IMG/VR virus record: IMGVR_UViG_2531839583_000014
Source: a virus
Lineage: Duplodnaviria; Heunggongvirae; Uroviricota; Caudoviricetes; Peduoviridae
Strand: one strand, 5' to 3'
DNA length: 4,923 nucleotides
The notes below the pieces were generated by a model. That model had not been told where the DNA came from and did no database searches. It saw nothing but the letters and a program-made list of their open reading frames with translations. The stretch's first letter is position 1. Every line of letters starts with the position of its first letter. Positions 1 to 4,923 of the stretch are shown here, one piece after another. Both the position numbers and the translations under genes were made by a program.

Positions 1-585
1 TTATAACGTCACTCCGCCTTTTAGTGGATTCAGAGCGACGGCATTTTGCAGGTAGTCAGGCGCAAGGTGCGCATAGGCCATCGTCTGCTGAATGCTCGCA
101 TGTCCCAGAATCTGTTGCAGTGCGATTATATTGCCCCCATTCATCATGAAATGGCTTGCGAATGTATGCCGCAGGATGTGGGTTGCCTGATTGGGTGGTA
201 TATCAGGTTTCACTCTGCGTAAAATCCCGCAAAATTTCTCATAATCAACTTTGAATAATTTGGCGCTGGCCTCCTCTTTAACTTTTTTCTCCAGTTCCTC
301 AGAAATCGGCACGGTTCGCTTTTTACCGTTTTTGGTTTTCAGGAAGGTAACCCTGCAATTTGTAATCTGTGCTGGTTTTAGCGTGGCAACTTCCGTCCAT
401 CTTCCTCCAGTGCTCAGACATAAAAGCGCGACAAGTAAGTCATCACCAGCCAAAACATTTAACAGTTTTTCGATTTCTGCTTTTTCCAGGAACGTCATTT
501 CAGGGTTGGCCTCCGCCAGTGGCGGCAGTCCGTGAATTGGGTGTTGCCCGGAAAATTCATCCAATTGAATTAATTTTGTGAACAT
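1..585 (-). CDS. int: Tyrosine recombinase / phage integrase of the P2-HP1-186 family, catalytic domain only (N-terminally truncated, probable pseudogene fragment)
   Basis: The translation carries the tyrosine-recombinase catalytic motifs: box I Arg in LSTGGRWTEV, box II HILRHTFASHFMMNGGNI, and LGHASIQQTMAYAHL with the nucleophilic Tyr. The 194 aa from the first ATG (583..585) is well short of the roughly 340 aa typical of this family. The frame stays open upstream to the stop at 718..720 with no further ATG/GTG/TTG, so the arm-binding and core-binding N-terminal domains are missing. Stop codon is at 1..3. Confidence 0.75.
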   Translation of the reverse strand: MFTKLIQLDEFSGQHPIHGLPPLAEANPEMTFLEKAEIEKLLNVLAGDDLLVALLCLSTGGRWTEVATLKPAQITNCRVTFLKTKNGKKRTVPISEELEKKVKEEASAKLFKVDYEKFCGILRRVKPDIPPNQATHILRHTFASHFMMNGGNIIALQQILGHASIQQTMAYAHLAPDYLQNAVALNPLKGGVTL

Positions 586-669
586 GCCGGATACAGCTAT
601 CAGGGCGTTGCAAAGTCCGTCACGCTGCCAAAACTGACCCGTAAGCTCGAAAACTATCGCGGTGCGGGG

Positions 670-1062
670 ATGAACGGCAGCGCACCGGTAGACCTCGGCC
701 TTGATGACGATGCGCTGTCAATGGAGTGGTCGCTCGGGGGCTTCCCGGATTCGGTTATCTGGGAGCTTTACGCCGCAACCGGTGTGGATGCCGTACCGAT
801 TCGTTTTGCTGGCTCTTACCAGCGCGACGATACCGGCGAAACGGTGGCCGTCGAAGTGGTCATGCGTGGCCGTCAGAAAGAAATCGACACCGGCGAGGGT
901 AAACAGGGAGAAGACACCGAGTCGAAAATCTCCGTGGTCTGCACTTATTTCCGGCTGACGATGGACGGTAAGGAGCTGGTCGAAATCGACACTATCAACA
1001 TGATTGAGAAGGTGAACGGCGTCGACCGGCTGGAGCAACACCGCCGCAATATCGGCCTGTGA
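670..1062 (+). CDS. FII: Phage major tail tube protein FII, probably 5'-truncated (ATG at 670 is an internal Met; frame open back to 574)
   Basis: 130-aa ORF ending ...VDRLEQHRRNIGL. The same frame is open upstream to the stop at 571..573 and encodes ...GVAKSVTLPKLTRKLENYRGAG before the Met, which I recognise as a tail-tube motif. P2 FII is about 172 aa, so at least about 10 N-terminal codons are missing, and more if the junction with int-derived sequence lies further right. A GGGG run sits just upstream of the 670 ATG. Confidence 0.7.
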   Translation: MNGSAPVDLGLDDDALSMEWSLGGFPDSVIWELYAATGVDAVPIRFAGSYQRDDTGETVAVEVVMRGRQKEIDTGEGKQGEDTESKISVVCTYFRLTMDGKELVEIDTINMIEKVNGVDRLEQHRRNIGL

Positions 1063-1069
1063 TTTTCAT

Positions 1070-1090
1070 CCGGTCAGCCAGGCTGACCGG
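1070..1090. repeat. Perfect 10-bp inverted repeat CCGGTCAGCC-a-GGCTGACCGG in the FII-E intergenic region (potential RNA stem-loop)
   Basis: 1070..1079 is the exact reverse complement of 1081..1090, 8 nt after the FII stop codon and 29 nt before the E start. It is not followed by a U-run. Confidence 0.5.
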
Positions 1091-1118
1091 TTAACCCCGA
1101 TTCAGAAGTGAGAAAACC

Positions 1119-1394
1119 ATGAACAAAGAAAATGTGATTACCCTGGAAAATCCGGTCAAACGTGGTGAGCAGGTTATCGAACAGGTCACGCTGATGAAAC
1201 CCAGTGCCGGGACACTGCGCGGTGTCAGTCTGGCTGCGGTCGCGAACTCCGAAGTCGATGCACTGATTAAGGTGCTGCCGCGCATGACGGCACCGATGCT
1301 GACCGAGCAGGAAGTCGCCGCGCTGGAACTGCCTGACCTTGTGGCGCTGGCCGGTAAGGTGGTCGGTTTTTTGTCGCCGAACTCGGTGCAGTGA
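1119..1394 (+). CDS. E: Phage tail assembly chaperone E (P2 gpE)
   Basis: 91-aa ORF, the same length as P2 gpE. It sits between the tube and tape-measure genes and contains the TTTTTTG slippery heptamer near its 3' end. Stop TGA at 1392..1394. Confidence 0.85.
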   Translation: MNKENVITLENPVKRGEQVIEQVTLMKPSAGTLRGVSLAAVANSEVDALIKVLPRMTAPMLTEQEVAALELPDLVALAGKVVGFLSPNSVQ

Positions 1395-1546
1395 CGTTTC
1401 CAAAAAATCTCTCGGTCGATGACCTGATGGCGGATGTGGCAGTGATATTTCACTGGCCGCCATCAGAACTGTATCCCATGAGCCTGACCGAACTCATCAC
1501 ATGGCGCGAAAAGGCGCTCCGGCGAAGCGGAAACACGAATGAGTAA
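1119..1546 (+). CDS. E': E+E' tail chaperone fusion made by programmed -1 ribosomal frameshift (shift at 1367..1373)
   Basis: After a -1 slip on T_TTT_TTG, the -1 frame is open from 1373 to the TAA at 1544..1546 and encodes VAELGAVTFPKNLSVDDLMADVAVIFHWPPSELYPMSLTELITWREKALRRSGNTNE. The predicted fusion is 85 + 57 = 142 aa, the size of P2 E+E'. Its end overlaps the T start codon. Confidence 0.7.
1367..1373 (+). other. Slippery heptanucleotide T_TTT_TTG for the -1 programmed frameshift of E into E'
   Basis: Heptamer in X_XXY_YYZ register relative to the E frame (codons TTT 1368..1370, TTG 1371..1373), located 7 codons before the E stop with an open -1 frame downstream. It matches the motif described for the P2 tail operon. 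Confidence 0.7.
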
Positions 1547-2966
1547 CAATGTAAAATTACAGGTATTGCTCAGGGCTGTTGACCAGGCATCCCGCCCGTT
1601 TAAATCCATCCGCACAGCGAGTAAGTCGCTGTCGGGGGAAAGCCGTGCCGTGTTAAGTCGCCTGCAGGCACCGACGGGAAAAGCATGGGATGCACTCAAA
1701 GAGCTTGGCGTGAAAACCTCAGACAGTAAGGGGAATACCCGACCAGTATTTACCATTCTGAAAGAAATGCAGGCCAGTTTTGAGAAAAACCGGCTCGGTA
1801 CTGCCCAGCAGGCTGAATACATGAAAACCATTTTCGGGGAGGAGGCCAGCTCAGCCGCCGCCGTGCTGATGACTGCCGCCTCAACCGGAAAGCTGGACAA
1901 ACTGACCGCTGCGTTTAAAGCCTCAGACGGGAAGACCGCCGAGCTGGTAAATATCATGCAGGACAACCTCGGCGGTGACTTTAAGGAGTTTCAGTCCGCT
2001 TATGAGGCGGTGGGGACAGACCTGTTTGACCAGCAGGAAGGCGCGCTGCGTAAGCTCACACAGACGGCCACAAAGTATGTGTTAAAACTCGACGGCTGGA
2101 TACAGAAAAACAAATCACTGGCGTCAACCATTGGCCTCATTGCCGGTGGCGCGCTGGCGCTTACTGGCATCATCGGTGCAATTGGTCTTGTTGCCTGGCC
2201 GGTTATCACTGGCATCAATGCCATCATCGCGGCAGCAGGCGCAATGGGGGCAATCTTCACGACGGTTGGCAGTGCTGTTATGACGGCCATCGGGGCGATT
2301 AGCTGGCCGGTTGTGGCCGTGGTGGCCGCCATTGTCGCCGGGGCGTTGCTTATCCGTAAATACTGGGAGCCTGTCAGCACATTCTTTGGCGGTGTGATGG
2401 AAGGGCTGAAAGCGGCATTTGCGCCGGTGGGGGAACTGTTCACGCCACTTAAGCCGGTGTTTGACTGGCTGGGCGAAAAGTTACAGGCCGCGTGGCAGTG
2501 GTTTAAAAACCTGATTGCCCCGGTCAAAGCCACCCAGGACACCCTGAACCGTTGCCGTGATACTGGCGTCATGTTCGGGCAGGCACTGGCTGACGCGCTG
2601 ATGCTGCCGCTTAATGCGTTCAACAAACTGCGCAGCGGAATTGACTGGGTACTGGAAAAACTCGGTGTTATCAACAAAGAGTCAGACACACTTGACCAGA
2701 CCGCCGCCAGAACTCAAGCCGCCACGTATGGCAGCGGTGGTTATATTCCGGCGACCAGCTCTTATGCAGGCTATCAGGCTTATCAGCCGGTCACGGCACC
2801 GGCTGGCCGCTCTTATGTGGACCAGAGTAAAAACGAATATCACATCAGCCTGACCGGTGGTACTGCGCCGGGGACACAGCTTGACCGCCAGTTACAGGAT
2901 GCGCTCGAAAAATACGAGCGGGATAAACGTGCGCGCGCCCGTGCCAGCATGATGCATGACGGTTAA
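1539..2966 (+). CDS. T: Phage tail tape-measure protein T, unusually short (475 aa; likely internally deleted)
   Basis: Sits between E/E' and U as in P2. Contains a tape-measure-like segment (RPVFTILKEMQASFEKNRLGTAQQAEYMKTIFGEEASSAAAVLM) and a long Gly/Ala-rich hydrophobic stretch (LASTIGLIAGGALALTGIIGAIGLVAWPVITGINAIIAAAGAMGAIF...) typical of tape-measure proteins. P2 gpT is about 815 aa as I recall, so roughly 340 aa are missing. Stop TAA at 2964..2966. Confidence 0.85.
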   Translation: MSNNVKLQVLLRAVDQASRPFKSIRTASKSLSGESRAVLSRLQAPTGKAWDALKELGVKTSDSKGNTRPVFTILKEMQASFEKNRLGTAQQAEYMKTIFGEEASSAAAVLMTAASTGKLDKLTAAFKASDGKTAELVNIMQDNLGGDFKEFQSAYEAVGTDLFDQQEGALRKLTQTATKYVLKLDGWIQKNKSLASTIGLIAGGALALTGIIGAIGLVAWPVITGINAIIAAAGAMGAIFTTVGSAVMTAIGAISWPVVAVVAAIVAGALLIRKYWEPVSTFFGGVMEGLKAAFAPVGELFTPLKPVFDWLGEKLQAAWQWFKNLIAPVKATQDTLNRCRDTGVMFGQALADALMLPLNAFNKLRSGIDWVLEKLGVINKESDTLDQTAARTQAATYGSGGYIPATSSYAGYQAYQPVTAPAGRSYVDQSKNEYHISLTGGTAPGTQLDRQLQDALEKYERDKRARARASMMHDG

Positions 2967-2971
2967 GGAGG
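2965..2971 (+). promoter_or_regulatory. Shine-Dalgarno sequence AAGGAGG for U
   Basis: Near-consensus AAGGAGG lying 9 nt upstream of the U ATG at 2981 and overlapping the T stop codon. Confidence 0.6.
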
Positions 2972-2980
2972 TGACGAAAA

Positions 2981-3460
2981 ATGATGCTCGCGTTAGGTAT
3001 GTTTGTTTTTATGCGCCAGACGCTGCCACACCAGACCATGCAGCGTGAATCAGATTATCGCTGGCCGTCAAATTCCCGTATCGGTAAACGGGATGCCTTT
3101 CAGTTTCTCGGTGTGGGTGAGGAAAACATCACGCTTGCCGGTGTGCTTTATCCAGAACTGACCGGCGGCAAGCTGACGATGACCACGCTCAGGCTGATGG
3201 CAGAGGAAGGCCGGGCGTGGCCGTTGCTGGATGGCACCGGCATGATTTACGGCATGTATGTCATCAGCAGGGTGAGTGAAACAGGGAGTATTTTCTTTGC
3301 AGACGGCACACCCCGAAAAATTGATTTTACGCTGTCGCTCACCCGCGTTGATGAATCACTGGCCGCGCTTTATGGCGATATCGGTAAACAGGCGGAATCG
3401 CTCATCGGTAAGGCTGGCAGTATGGCGACTAAATTCACGGGTATGACGGGGGCGGGATAA
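2981..3460 (+). CDS. U: Phage tail protein U (P2 gpU)
   Basis: 159-aa ORF, the same length as P2 gpU, preceded by a strong RBS. Its stop overlaps the D start (TAATG), as expected for translational coupling in the P2 tail operon. Confidence 0.85.
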   Translation: MMLALGMFVFMRQTLPHQTMQRESDYRWPSNSRIGKRDAFQFLGVGEENITLAGVLYPELTGGKLTMTTLRLMAEEGRAWPLLDGTGMIYGMYVISRVSETGSIFFADGTPRKIDFTLSLTRVDESLAALYGDIGKQAESLIGKAGSMATKFTGMTGAG

Positions 3461-4623
3461 TGCTGGATGCACTGACATTTGATGCAGGCAGTACGCTGAC
3501 GCCGGATTACATGCTGATGCTCGACAGCAGGGATATTACCGGCAATATCAGCGACCGTCTGATGAGCATGACCCTGACGGATAACCGGGGCTTTGAGGCT
3601 GACCAGCTTGATATTGAACTGAACGATGCCGACGGGCAGGTCGGGCTGCCGGTTCGTGGCGCTGTCCTGACGGTGTATATCGGCTGGGAAGGGTTTGCCC
3701 TGGTATGCAAAGGGAAATTTACCGTTGATGAGGTTGAACACCGGGGCGCGCCAGATGTGGTCACCATCCGCGCCCGGAGTGCAGATTTTCGCGGGACGCT
3801 CAATTCCCGCCGTGAAGGCTCCTGGCATGACACCACGCTCGGTGCGATTGTTAAGGCGATAGCCACCCGTAACAGGCTGGAAGCCAGTGTCGCTCCGTCA
3901 CTGGCCGGAATAAAAATTCCACACATCGACCAGTCGCAGGAGTCTGATGCGAAATTCCTGACCCGTCTTGCAGAACGCAACGGCGGTGAGGTGTCGGTAA
4001 AAATGGGAAAACTGTTGTTTCTCAAAGCGGGGCAGGGAGTGACGGCCGGCGGTAAAAAAATCCCGCAGGTCACCATAACCCGCAGCGACGGCGACCGCCA
4101 TCATTTTGCGATTGCTGACCGTGGAGCCTACACCGGTGTAACGGCAAAATGGCTACACACTAAAGACCCGAAGCCGCAAAAGCAGAAGGTAAAACTGAAA
4201 CGCAAAAAGAAAGAGAAACACCTGCGCGCACTGGAGCACCCGAAAGCGAAACCGGTCAGGCAGAAGAAAGCGCCTAAAGTACCGGAAGCGCGTGAAGGTG
4301 AATACATGGCCGGTGAGGCTGACAACGTTTTTGCCCTGACCACGGTATATGCCACGAAAGCGCAGGCCATGCGCGCCGCTCAGGCGAAGTGGGATAAACT
4401 GCAACGGGGCGTTGCGGAGTTCTCCATCAGCCTGGCTACCGGTCGGGCAGATATTTACACGGAAACACCGGTCAAAGTGTCAGGCTTTAAGCGCGTCATA
4501 GACGAGCAGGACTGGACAATCACTAAGGTGACACATTTTCTGAATAATAGCGGCTTCACGACGTCCTTGGAGCTTGAGGTCAGGCTTTCTGATGTGGAGT
4601 ACGAAACAGAAGATGAAGAATGA
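3460..4623 (+). CDS. D: Phage tail protein D (P2 gpD, Phage_GPD family)
   Basis: 387-aa ORF, the same length as P2 gpD, lying directly between U and ogr. Contains a lysine-rich basic segment (KDPKPQKQKVKLKRKKKEKHLRALEHPKAKPVRQKKAPKV) and an acidic C-terminus (EYETEDEE). Confidence 0.85.
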   Translation: MLDALTFDAGSTLTPDYMLMLDSRDITGNISDRLMSMTLTDNRGFEADQLDIELNDADGQVGLPVRGAVLTVYIGWEGFALVCKGKFTVDEVEHRGAPDVVTIRARSADFRGTLNSRREGSWHDTTLGAIVKAIATRNRLEASVAPSLAGIKIPHIDQSQESDAKFLTRLAERNGGEVSVKMGKLLFLKAGQGVTAGGKKIPQVTITRSDGDRHHFAIADRGAYTGVTAKWLHTKDPKPQKQKVKLKRKKKEKHLRALEHPKAKPVRQKKAPKVPEAREGEYMAGEADNVFALTTVYATKAQAMRAAQAKWDKLQRGVAEFSISLATGRADIYTETPVKVSGFKRVIDEQDWTITKVTHFLNNSGFTTSLELEVRLSDVEYETEDEE

Positions 4624-4641
4624 TGTGTTTTATTTATCTGT

Positions 4642-4670
4642 TTGTTTTGTAAGGATAAATTAACTAAAAT
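4642..4670 (+). promoter_or_regulatory. Candidate sigma70 promoter for ogr (-35 TTGTTT 4642..4647, 17-nt spacer, -10 TAAAAT 4665..4670)
   Basis: AT-rich intergenic region between the D stop (4623) and the ogr ATG (4705). Hexamers were picked by eye; the -35 is weak (3 of 6) and the -10 is 5 of 6. Confidence 0.25.
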
Positions 4671-4704
4671 GGCACCATCAACAAAACCGGAAGAGGTGCT
4701 CGCG

Positions 4705-4923
4705 ATGTTTCATTGTCCTTTATGCCAGCATGCCGCACATGCGCGTACAAGTCGCTATATCACTGACACGACAAAAGAGCGTTATCACCAGTGTCAGAAC
4801 GTGAATTGCAGCGCCACGTTCATCACCTATGAGTCGGTACAGAGATACATCGTGAAGCCGGGAGAAGTCCACGCCGTAAGGCCGCACCCGTTGCCGTCAG
4901 GGCAGCAAATTATGTGGATGTGA
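4705..4923 (+). CDS. ogr: Ogr, zinc-finger late transcription activator (P2 Ogr / E. coli OgrK-like)
   Basis: 72-aa product MFHCPLCQHAAHARTSRYITDTTKERYHQCQNVNCSATFITYESVQRYIVKPGEVHAVRPHPLPSGQQIMWM with a CxxC...CxxxxC zinc-binding arrangement. This matches the Ogr/OgrK sequence as I recall it. The ORF-track start at 4642 is a TTG codon that would add 21 residues; I prefer the ATG at 4705. Confidence 0.9.
   Translation: MFHCPLCQHAAHARTSRYITDTTKERYHQCQNVNCSATFITYESVQRYIVKPGEVHAVRPHPLPSGQQIMWM

Follow-up and report, generated by a model that had tools for sequence, protein, structure and literature searches.

Proteins of the gp27, Mu gp44 and VgrG type are the trimeric central hubs of contractile injection systems. 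For phage P2, cryo-EM structures were reported in a bioRxiv preprint of 15 September 2026 (10.64898/2026.09.14.750843), the main text of which describes gpD as forming a trimeric hub with the tube initiator above it and the spike below. The same text names an element of gpD, the 'hub-triplex contact loop' L23, which is described as making electrostatic contact with the gpJ2–gpI triplex and as sterically excluding three of the six gpU C-terminal helices; L23 and the gpU helices together are said to take the baseplate from C6 to C3 symmetry, and the gpU C-terminal helix is treated as the partner element of L23 (10.64898/2026.09.14.750843). A second loop variant, L12, is also named there, and the lumen is described as occupied by the tape-measure protein (10.64898/2026.09.14.750843). 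According to the same main text, L23 is conserved in sequence in Peduovirus and also occurs in Vimunumvirus and Duonihilunusvirus, and the loop–helix pair, unseen in other myophages or eCIS, is regarded by the authors as a P2-lineage innovation (10.64898/2026.09.14.750843).

The window, that is, the whole stretch of DNA that was analysed (4,923 nucleotides), carries a copy of gene D with 98.9% DNA identity to gene D of P2:

Positions 3460–4623, plus strand: gene D, encoding the baseplate hub protein gpD of 387 residues (open reading frame, Pfam family PF05954, identity with P2 gene D, and AF2 model).

The encoded product is the same protein as P2 gpD, from which it differs by three substitutions in 387 residues (K77E, S197G and D386E), residues 235–286 being identical. 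It matches Pfam family PF05954 (Phage_GPD) with an E-value of 6e-27 and a score of 95 bits, against a cut-off of 30.1, over residues 51–364. An AF2 model built from an alignment of 121 sequences (mean pLDDT 81.7, pTM 0.78) retrieved the hubs of pyocin R2, Mu and MuSo2, T4 gp27 and VgrG in a Foldseek search with a probability of 1.0, and on this predicted structure gpD is a baseplate hub of the gp27/VgrG type, in which sense the label 'tail protein D', given to the gene in a preliminary description of the window, was correct. The pyocin R2 hub (PDB 6U5H chain C, 329 residues) has the same fold and aligns with gpD residues 14–231 and 295–371 (E-value 2e-45), but it has about 30 residues between the aligned blocks, compared with about 64 in P2, and is without the Lys-rich HLRALxHPKAKP insertion considered below. 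The more distant gp27/Mu gp44/VgrG-type hubs (PDB 1K28, 1WRU, 9KI1, 3CDD and 4MTK) give TM-scores of 0.6–0.75, normalized on the shorter partner, whereas sequence identity is 8–17% and an equivalent basic insertion is unreported in them.

The preliminary description had drawn attention to positions 4150–4300 as a strongly basic, low-complexity stretch of about 45 residues. Translated in frame, these positions give WLHTKDPKPQKQKVKLKRKKKEKHLRALEHPKAKPVRQKKAPKVPEAREG, and the peptide quoted at the time lies inside the open reading frame 3460–4623. The strongly basic character is borne out: gpD residues 235–279 (nucleotides 4162–4296) contain 15 Lys and 4 Arg in 45 residues, against 15% Lys plus Arg over the whole protein, and when the residues of gpD were shuffled 20,000 times, two of the shuffles had a 45-residue window with at least 19 Lys or Arg. 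The complexity of the stretch is less low than it looks, in that TRF returned no tandem repeat in the DNA of the segment (minimum score 30) and the segment includes a non-repetitive conserved motif, HLRALEHPKAKP; direct repeats at the segment are of a weak two-copy type, with one (CAR-AAR)2 micro-repeat at the site of an indel. The coding strand is A-rich here (AT skew up to 0.69) because Lys codons require A. The window gave no match to Rfam, and at the segment there was neither a promoter-like site nor a terminator-like site above chance expectation, the single terminator-like site being at chance level. A search of the literature for earlier comments on the basic region of gpD yielded nothing useful.

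Three further observations on the DNA of gene D may be recorded here. Minus-strand open reading frames at 4128–4404 overlap the segment; they were taken to arise incidentally from the A-richness of the coding strand. Inside gene D, window positions 4054–4060 form a run of seven A residues (GGT AAA AAA ATC, Lys199–Lys200), and a terminator-like hairpin, of a frequency equal to chance expectation, lies on the minus strand at 4085–4063.

To place the segment in the protein family, full-length representatives of 50%-identity clusters were aligned, taken from a homologue search that gave 3,648 matches at E-values of 0.001 or below. Compared with 48 homologues of 318–345 residues, residues 245–284 are the sole sizeable insertion in P2 gpD, the other extras being a few N-terminal residues and the C-terminal eight. 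A tight beta-hairpin joins the anchors ...YTGVxAxW... and ...NxKxLxxxY... in about half of the family, the equivalent of P2 residues 222–300 amounting to 46 residues or fewer (typically 39–40) in 59 of the 116 representatives, as against 79 residues in P2. The AF2 model has strands at 226–231, 242–248 and 290–297, and its pLDDT is below 50 for residues 251–286. Taken together, the insertion profile, the pyocin R2 alignment and the AF2 fold point to an insertion at a hairpin tip within a canonical hub; in the lone protein an extended, flexible conformation is predicted for it. On this evidence the segment can be divided as follows:

Positions 4153–4326, plus strand: extended beta-hairpin, residues 232–289, between strands 226–231 and 290–297 (insertion profile, AF2 model and pyocin R2 alignment).

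Positions 4162–4218, plus strand: Lys-rich N-flank, residues 235–253, KDPKPQKQKVKLKRKKKEK (dN/dS 0.06, mean pairwise amino acid identity 0.84).

Positions 4219–4254, plus strand: conserved core motif, residues 254–265, HLRALEHPKAKP (conserved across genera, dN/dS 0.12).

Positions 4255–4284, plus strand: variable sub-linker and indel hotspot, residues 266–275, VRQKKAPKVP (dN/dS 0.34, amino acid identity 0.50).

Positions 4285–4317, plus strand: conserved return arm, residues 276–286, EAREGEYMAGE (dN/dS 0.035, amino acid identity 0.93).

Of the suggestion that the segment is a flexible linker, the flexibility is thus retained as a prediction, while the term linker does not apply to an insertion at a beta-hairpin tip, which does not join domains. 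The further suggestion that such a segment is normal for gpD holds for close relatives, 120 of 120 homologues of at least 76% identity having it, and fails for the family as a whole, in which 59 of 116 representatives are without the insertion. Among the close relatives the stretch from GVTAKW to EADNV measures 59–70 residues, and 80 related viral loci agree with this pattern, these loci being close relatives only (at least 71% identity), to which distant phages were added one by one. Lengths between lineages vary, as had been anticipated, from 59–70 residues anchor to anchor in close relatives to hairpins of 18–61 residues across the Peduoviridae, and further out the equivalent of residues 222–300 reaches about 150 residues in some distant homologues. 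Six of these long homologues (P0138, P0139, P0153, P0155, P0161 and P0186) have 120–150 residues where P2 has 79, and the added sequence in several has the appearance of a hairpin-plus-helix unit that has been duplicated, with, for example, a second '...YSGVRASWKD...' downstream of an 'AVRAEWERLQR'-like helix.

The distribution of the insertion was followed in 13 phage genomes. A hairpin (P2 residues 232–289) of 58–61 residues carrying the HLRALxHPKAKP core, with the consensus HLRAL(E/Q)HPKAKP, is found in Peduovirus, Vimunumvirus, Duonihilunusvirus and Eganvirus SI22, the last of these lying beyond the three genera named in the preprint's main text (10.64898/2026.09.14.750843). The hubs of Elveevirus Cartapus, Senquatrovirus SEN4, Xuanwuvirus, Reipivirus and Aresaunavirus RSA1 are extended at the same site and carry a net charge of +5 to +8 there, but their basic hairpins are shorter (40–46 as against 58–61 residues), lack the core and cannot be aligned with the P2 insert. 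Citexvirus, Tigrvirus and Simpcentumvirus lack the insertion, and in these three, as in one phage from outside the Peduoviridae, the hairpin has 18–20 residues. Every one of the extended hairpins has a net charge of +5 to +11, even where the sequence differs. The neighbouring gene product gpU varies in a related manner, in a part of the protein that lies past the Pfam GpU domain:

Positions 3356–3457, plus strand: C-terminal tail of gpU, residues 126–159 (PF06995 covers residues 6–125 only).

In the 10 phages in which gpU adjoins gene D, a small sample compared without regard to phylogeny, the gpU tail measures 34–36 residues where the hairpin has 41–61 residues and 0–21 residues otherwise; SEN4, Xuanwuvirus and Reipivirus, with another gene order in which gpU is not beside D, fall outside this comparison. 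The pattern agrees with the loop–helix module of the P2 preprint (10.64898/2026.09.14.750843).

These results bear on which part of gpD is L23. Since the main text of the preprint gives L23 without residue numbers, the match was made by elimination and by phyletic pattern (10.64898/2026.09.14.750843). Residues 232–289 are in all likelihood L23, because they hold the sole sizeable insertion in P2 gpD, have the reported genus distribution and co-vary with the gpU tail. The two are alike in being an extended loop of the P2 lineage, in the same three genera, in the coupling to the gpU tail and in a proposed partner that is acidic (10.64898/2026.09.14.750843). The feature is thus almost certainly one that is already known, an ordinary structural loop of the P2 hub. 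According to the preliminary description, invariance in length and sequence across all gpD homologues would make the segment a standard feature of no special interest; in the alignment the segment is invariant in neither, and it is ordinary despite this variation, being a structural loop that is under selection and has been described before. The earlier interpretation is, on balance, partly supported.

That the loop is selected rests on pairwise comparison of coding sequences. The dN/dS ratio is 0.11 for the insert, compared with 0.13 for the N-terminal folded part of gpD and 0.12 for the C-terminal part, these ratios being rough because dS is near saturation (>1), and the insert therefore appears, at the level of sequence, to be under purifying selection as strong as that on the rest of gpD. 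Only residues 266–275 are relaxed, and most of the length changes fall there. We considered whether the segment might instead be a passive spacer, flexible and without a specific partner, in which an expansion of low-complexity sequence is tolerated and the length drifts by replication slippage. The pLDDT below 50, the differences in length among lineages and the faster evolution of residues 266–275 (dN/dS 0.34) are what such a spacer would display, as are small indels in the N-flank, which involve two codons and lie within a (CAR-AAR)n run encoding QKQK. That run is the sole hint of slippage, a process that had been proposed for the segment at the outset and for which support is thin, being confined to these N-flank indels while TRF detected no repeat. 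A passive spacer is made very unlikely by a dN/dS at the level of the folded domains and by the retention of HLRALxHPKAKP and EAREGEYMAGE across genera; the lack of a tandem repeat, the positive net charge kept by every extended variant in spite of sequence change, and the co-variation of insert length with the gpU tail and with the acidic tail of gpD also argue against it.

The charge of the insert invites comparison with its possible partners. Residues 235–286 have a net charge of +12, and the core of gpD has –6, P2 gpJ –18, gpI –7 and gpX –6, figures that are crude and silent on the actual interface. So strong a charge on the segment could also suit contact with a nucleic acid or another polyanion, as the preliminary description had proposed in part: the loop might touch the leading genome end in the hub, or the phosphates of LPS or membrane once the baseplate opens, and so aid penetration or DNA exit. 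The hub gp44 of phage Mu (PDB 1WRU) reportedly has a positively charged surface that has been proposed to touch the membrane. In gpD, however, the sole Pfam match at an E-value of 0.01 or below is PF05954, with no match to a nucleic-acid-binding family, and about half of the homologous hubs do the same job without the insertion. The co-variation is moreover with gpU, a structural neighbour, and with nothing on the DNA side, and the main text of the preprint puts the gpD loop at the wedge interface and the tape-measure protein in the lumen (10.64898/2026.09.14.750843). Nothing points to a nucleic-acid-contacting role, nor to contact with the membrane, and we hold polyanion contact of either kind to be highly improbable as the function of the loop and at most a secondary role.

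A partner for the basic loop may also be sought within gpD itself, at its C terminus:

Positions 4588–4620, plus strand: acidic C-terminal tail of gpD, residues 377–387, SDVEYETEDEE (absent from short homologues).

Across 116 representatives, with phylogeny ignored, the Spearman correlation between the insert and this tail is 0.51 for length and –0.38 for charge. Most representatives with the HPxAK motif also have a (D/E)Y.(V/T)-like motif in the tail. The acidic tail may pair with the basic loop, and in a stronger form of this idea the loop would pair mainly with SDVEYETEDEE as a charge zipper, serving trimer stability or the solubility of unassembled gpD. Such a zipper would account for the absence of the acidic tail from short homologues and for the way in which the length and charge of the tail vary with the insert, and the AF2 model places strands both at the C terminus (381–386) and at 242–248. 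As the main role of the loop it is nevertheless scarcely probable, given that the correlations take no account of phylogeny, that AF2 confidence is low at both places, and that the preprint's main text assigns the triplex contact to the hub loop (10.64898/2026.09.14.750843). The zipper and a contact with the wedge are not mutually exclusive and could coexist.

Our working hypothesis, which we consider the best explanation and very probably right, is that the segment is a P2-lineage insertion at a hairpin tip of the trimeric hub and contacts the acidic baseplate wedge. The insertion of about 40 residues would consist of two Lys/Arg-rich arms carrying the conserved HLRALxHPKAKP core, and the loop would extend outward from the hub to the acidic wedge triplex of two gpJ and one gpI and would hold it through charge–charge contact. 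A trimeric hub would offer three gpD loops to six wedges, so that three gpU subunits out of six would hold the remaining three wedges with their C-terminal helices, and this arrangement of loop and gpU helix would give the baseplate its three-fold symmetry. The contact may be a weak, releasable tether that is lost as the baseplate detaches on contraction. That the loop touches the triplex, and that the symmetry is broken, is taken from the main text of the preprint (10.64898/2026.09.14.750843); our own analysis contributes the insertion itself, where it lies in the predicted fold and how flexible it is predicted to be, along with the purifying selection on it, its distribution, its co-variation with the gpU tail and the opposite net charges of the insert and its proposed partners.

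It is tempting to take the wedge contact one step further and to see in the loop a charge-tuned latch, sensitive to ionic strength, whose length and Lys/Arg content would set the force or salt threshold for wedge release jointly with the co-evolving acidic tail of gpD, a possible competitor. We offer this as a speculation that is unlikely to be correct as it stands. If the loop were such a latch, the HPxAK core would predate the Lys-rich arms as a short docking motif, given its occurrence in distant, weakly charged variants of the insertion: a match to HPx(A/T)(K/Q) occurs in six of the deeper 50%-identity representatives, the inserts of which are weakly charged.

The copy of gene D studied here differs from that of P2 in its surroundings. 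The window is a prophage remnant of 4.9 kb in the E. coli chromosome, flanked by cpxP and fieF (99.9% identity); in E. coli strain 300081, window positions 1–4923 correspond to a decayed P2-like prophage remnant at cpxP–fieF. Open reading frames and Pfam matches delineate a P2-type block of tail genes, comprising the truncated tail-tube gene FII (which lacks its 5' end), E/E', T, U, D and ogr/ogrK, and the order T–U–D–ogr around gpD is that of P2 according to Pfam matches of the neighbouring open reading frames, alignment with P2 and RefSeq annotation. Upstream of the tail block, on the opposite strand, is a truncated integrase, a pseudogene without its N terminus. RefSeq annotation of the flanks places no sheath, baseplate wedge, spike or head genes adjoining the window. 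In the window gpD is intact and its partners are probably absent, and with no wedge genes near the remnant the function of the loop in this copy is doubtful; here the loop is probably vestigial, its partners missing from the neighbourhood. Two further observations concern the genes upstream of U and D. Compared with P2, the tape-measure gene T (window 1539–2966) lacks 1,017 bp of its interior through an in-frame deletion, with a junction near 1636–1639, so that P2 positions 19951–20967 are missing and 475 residues are left as against 815, and RefSeq labels the gene a pseudogene. The gpE open reading frame (1119–1394) and the E' open reading frame that overlaps it (1391–1546) match the E/E+E' layout of P2, an arrangement that uses a –1 frameshift.

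Beyond annotation the significance of these findings is small. They supply residue-level boundaries (residues 245–284 for the insertion, 254–265 for the core and 266–275 for the variable sub-linker) and an independent phyletic check on a loop that the main text of the preprint describes by name only (10.64898/2026.09.14.750843). For the engineering of tails and tailocins, residues 266–275 mark the part of gpD that tolerates changes in length, as against the parts that do not. For the P2 hub itself, a stretch that looks like low-complexity junk in a well-known phage protein is a selected structural element.
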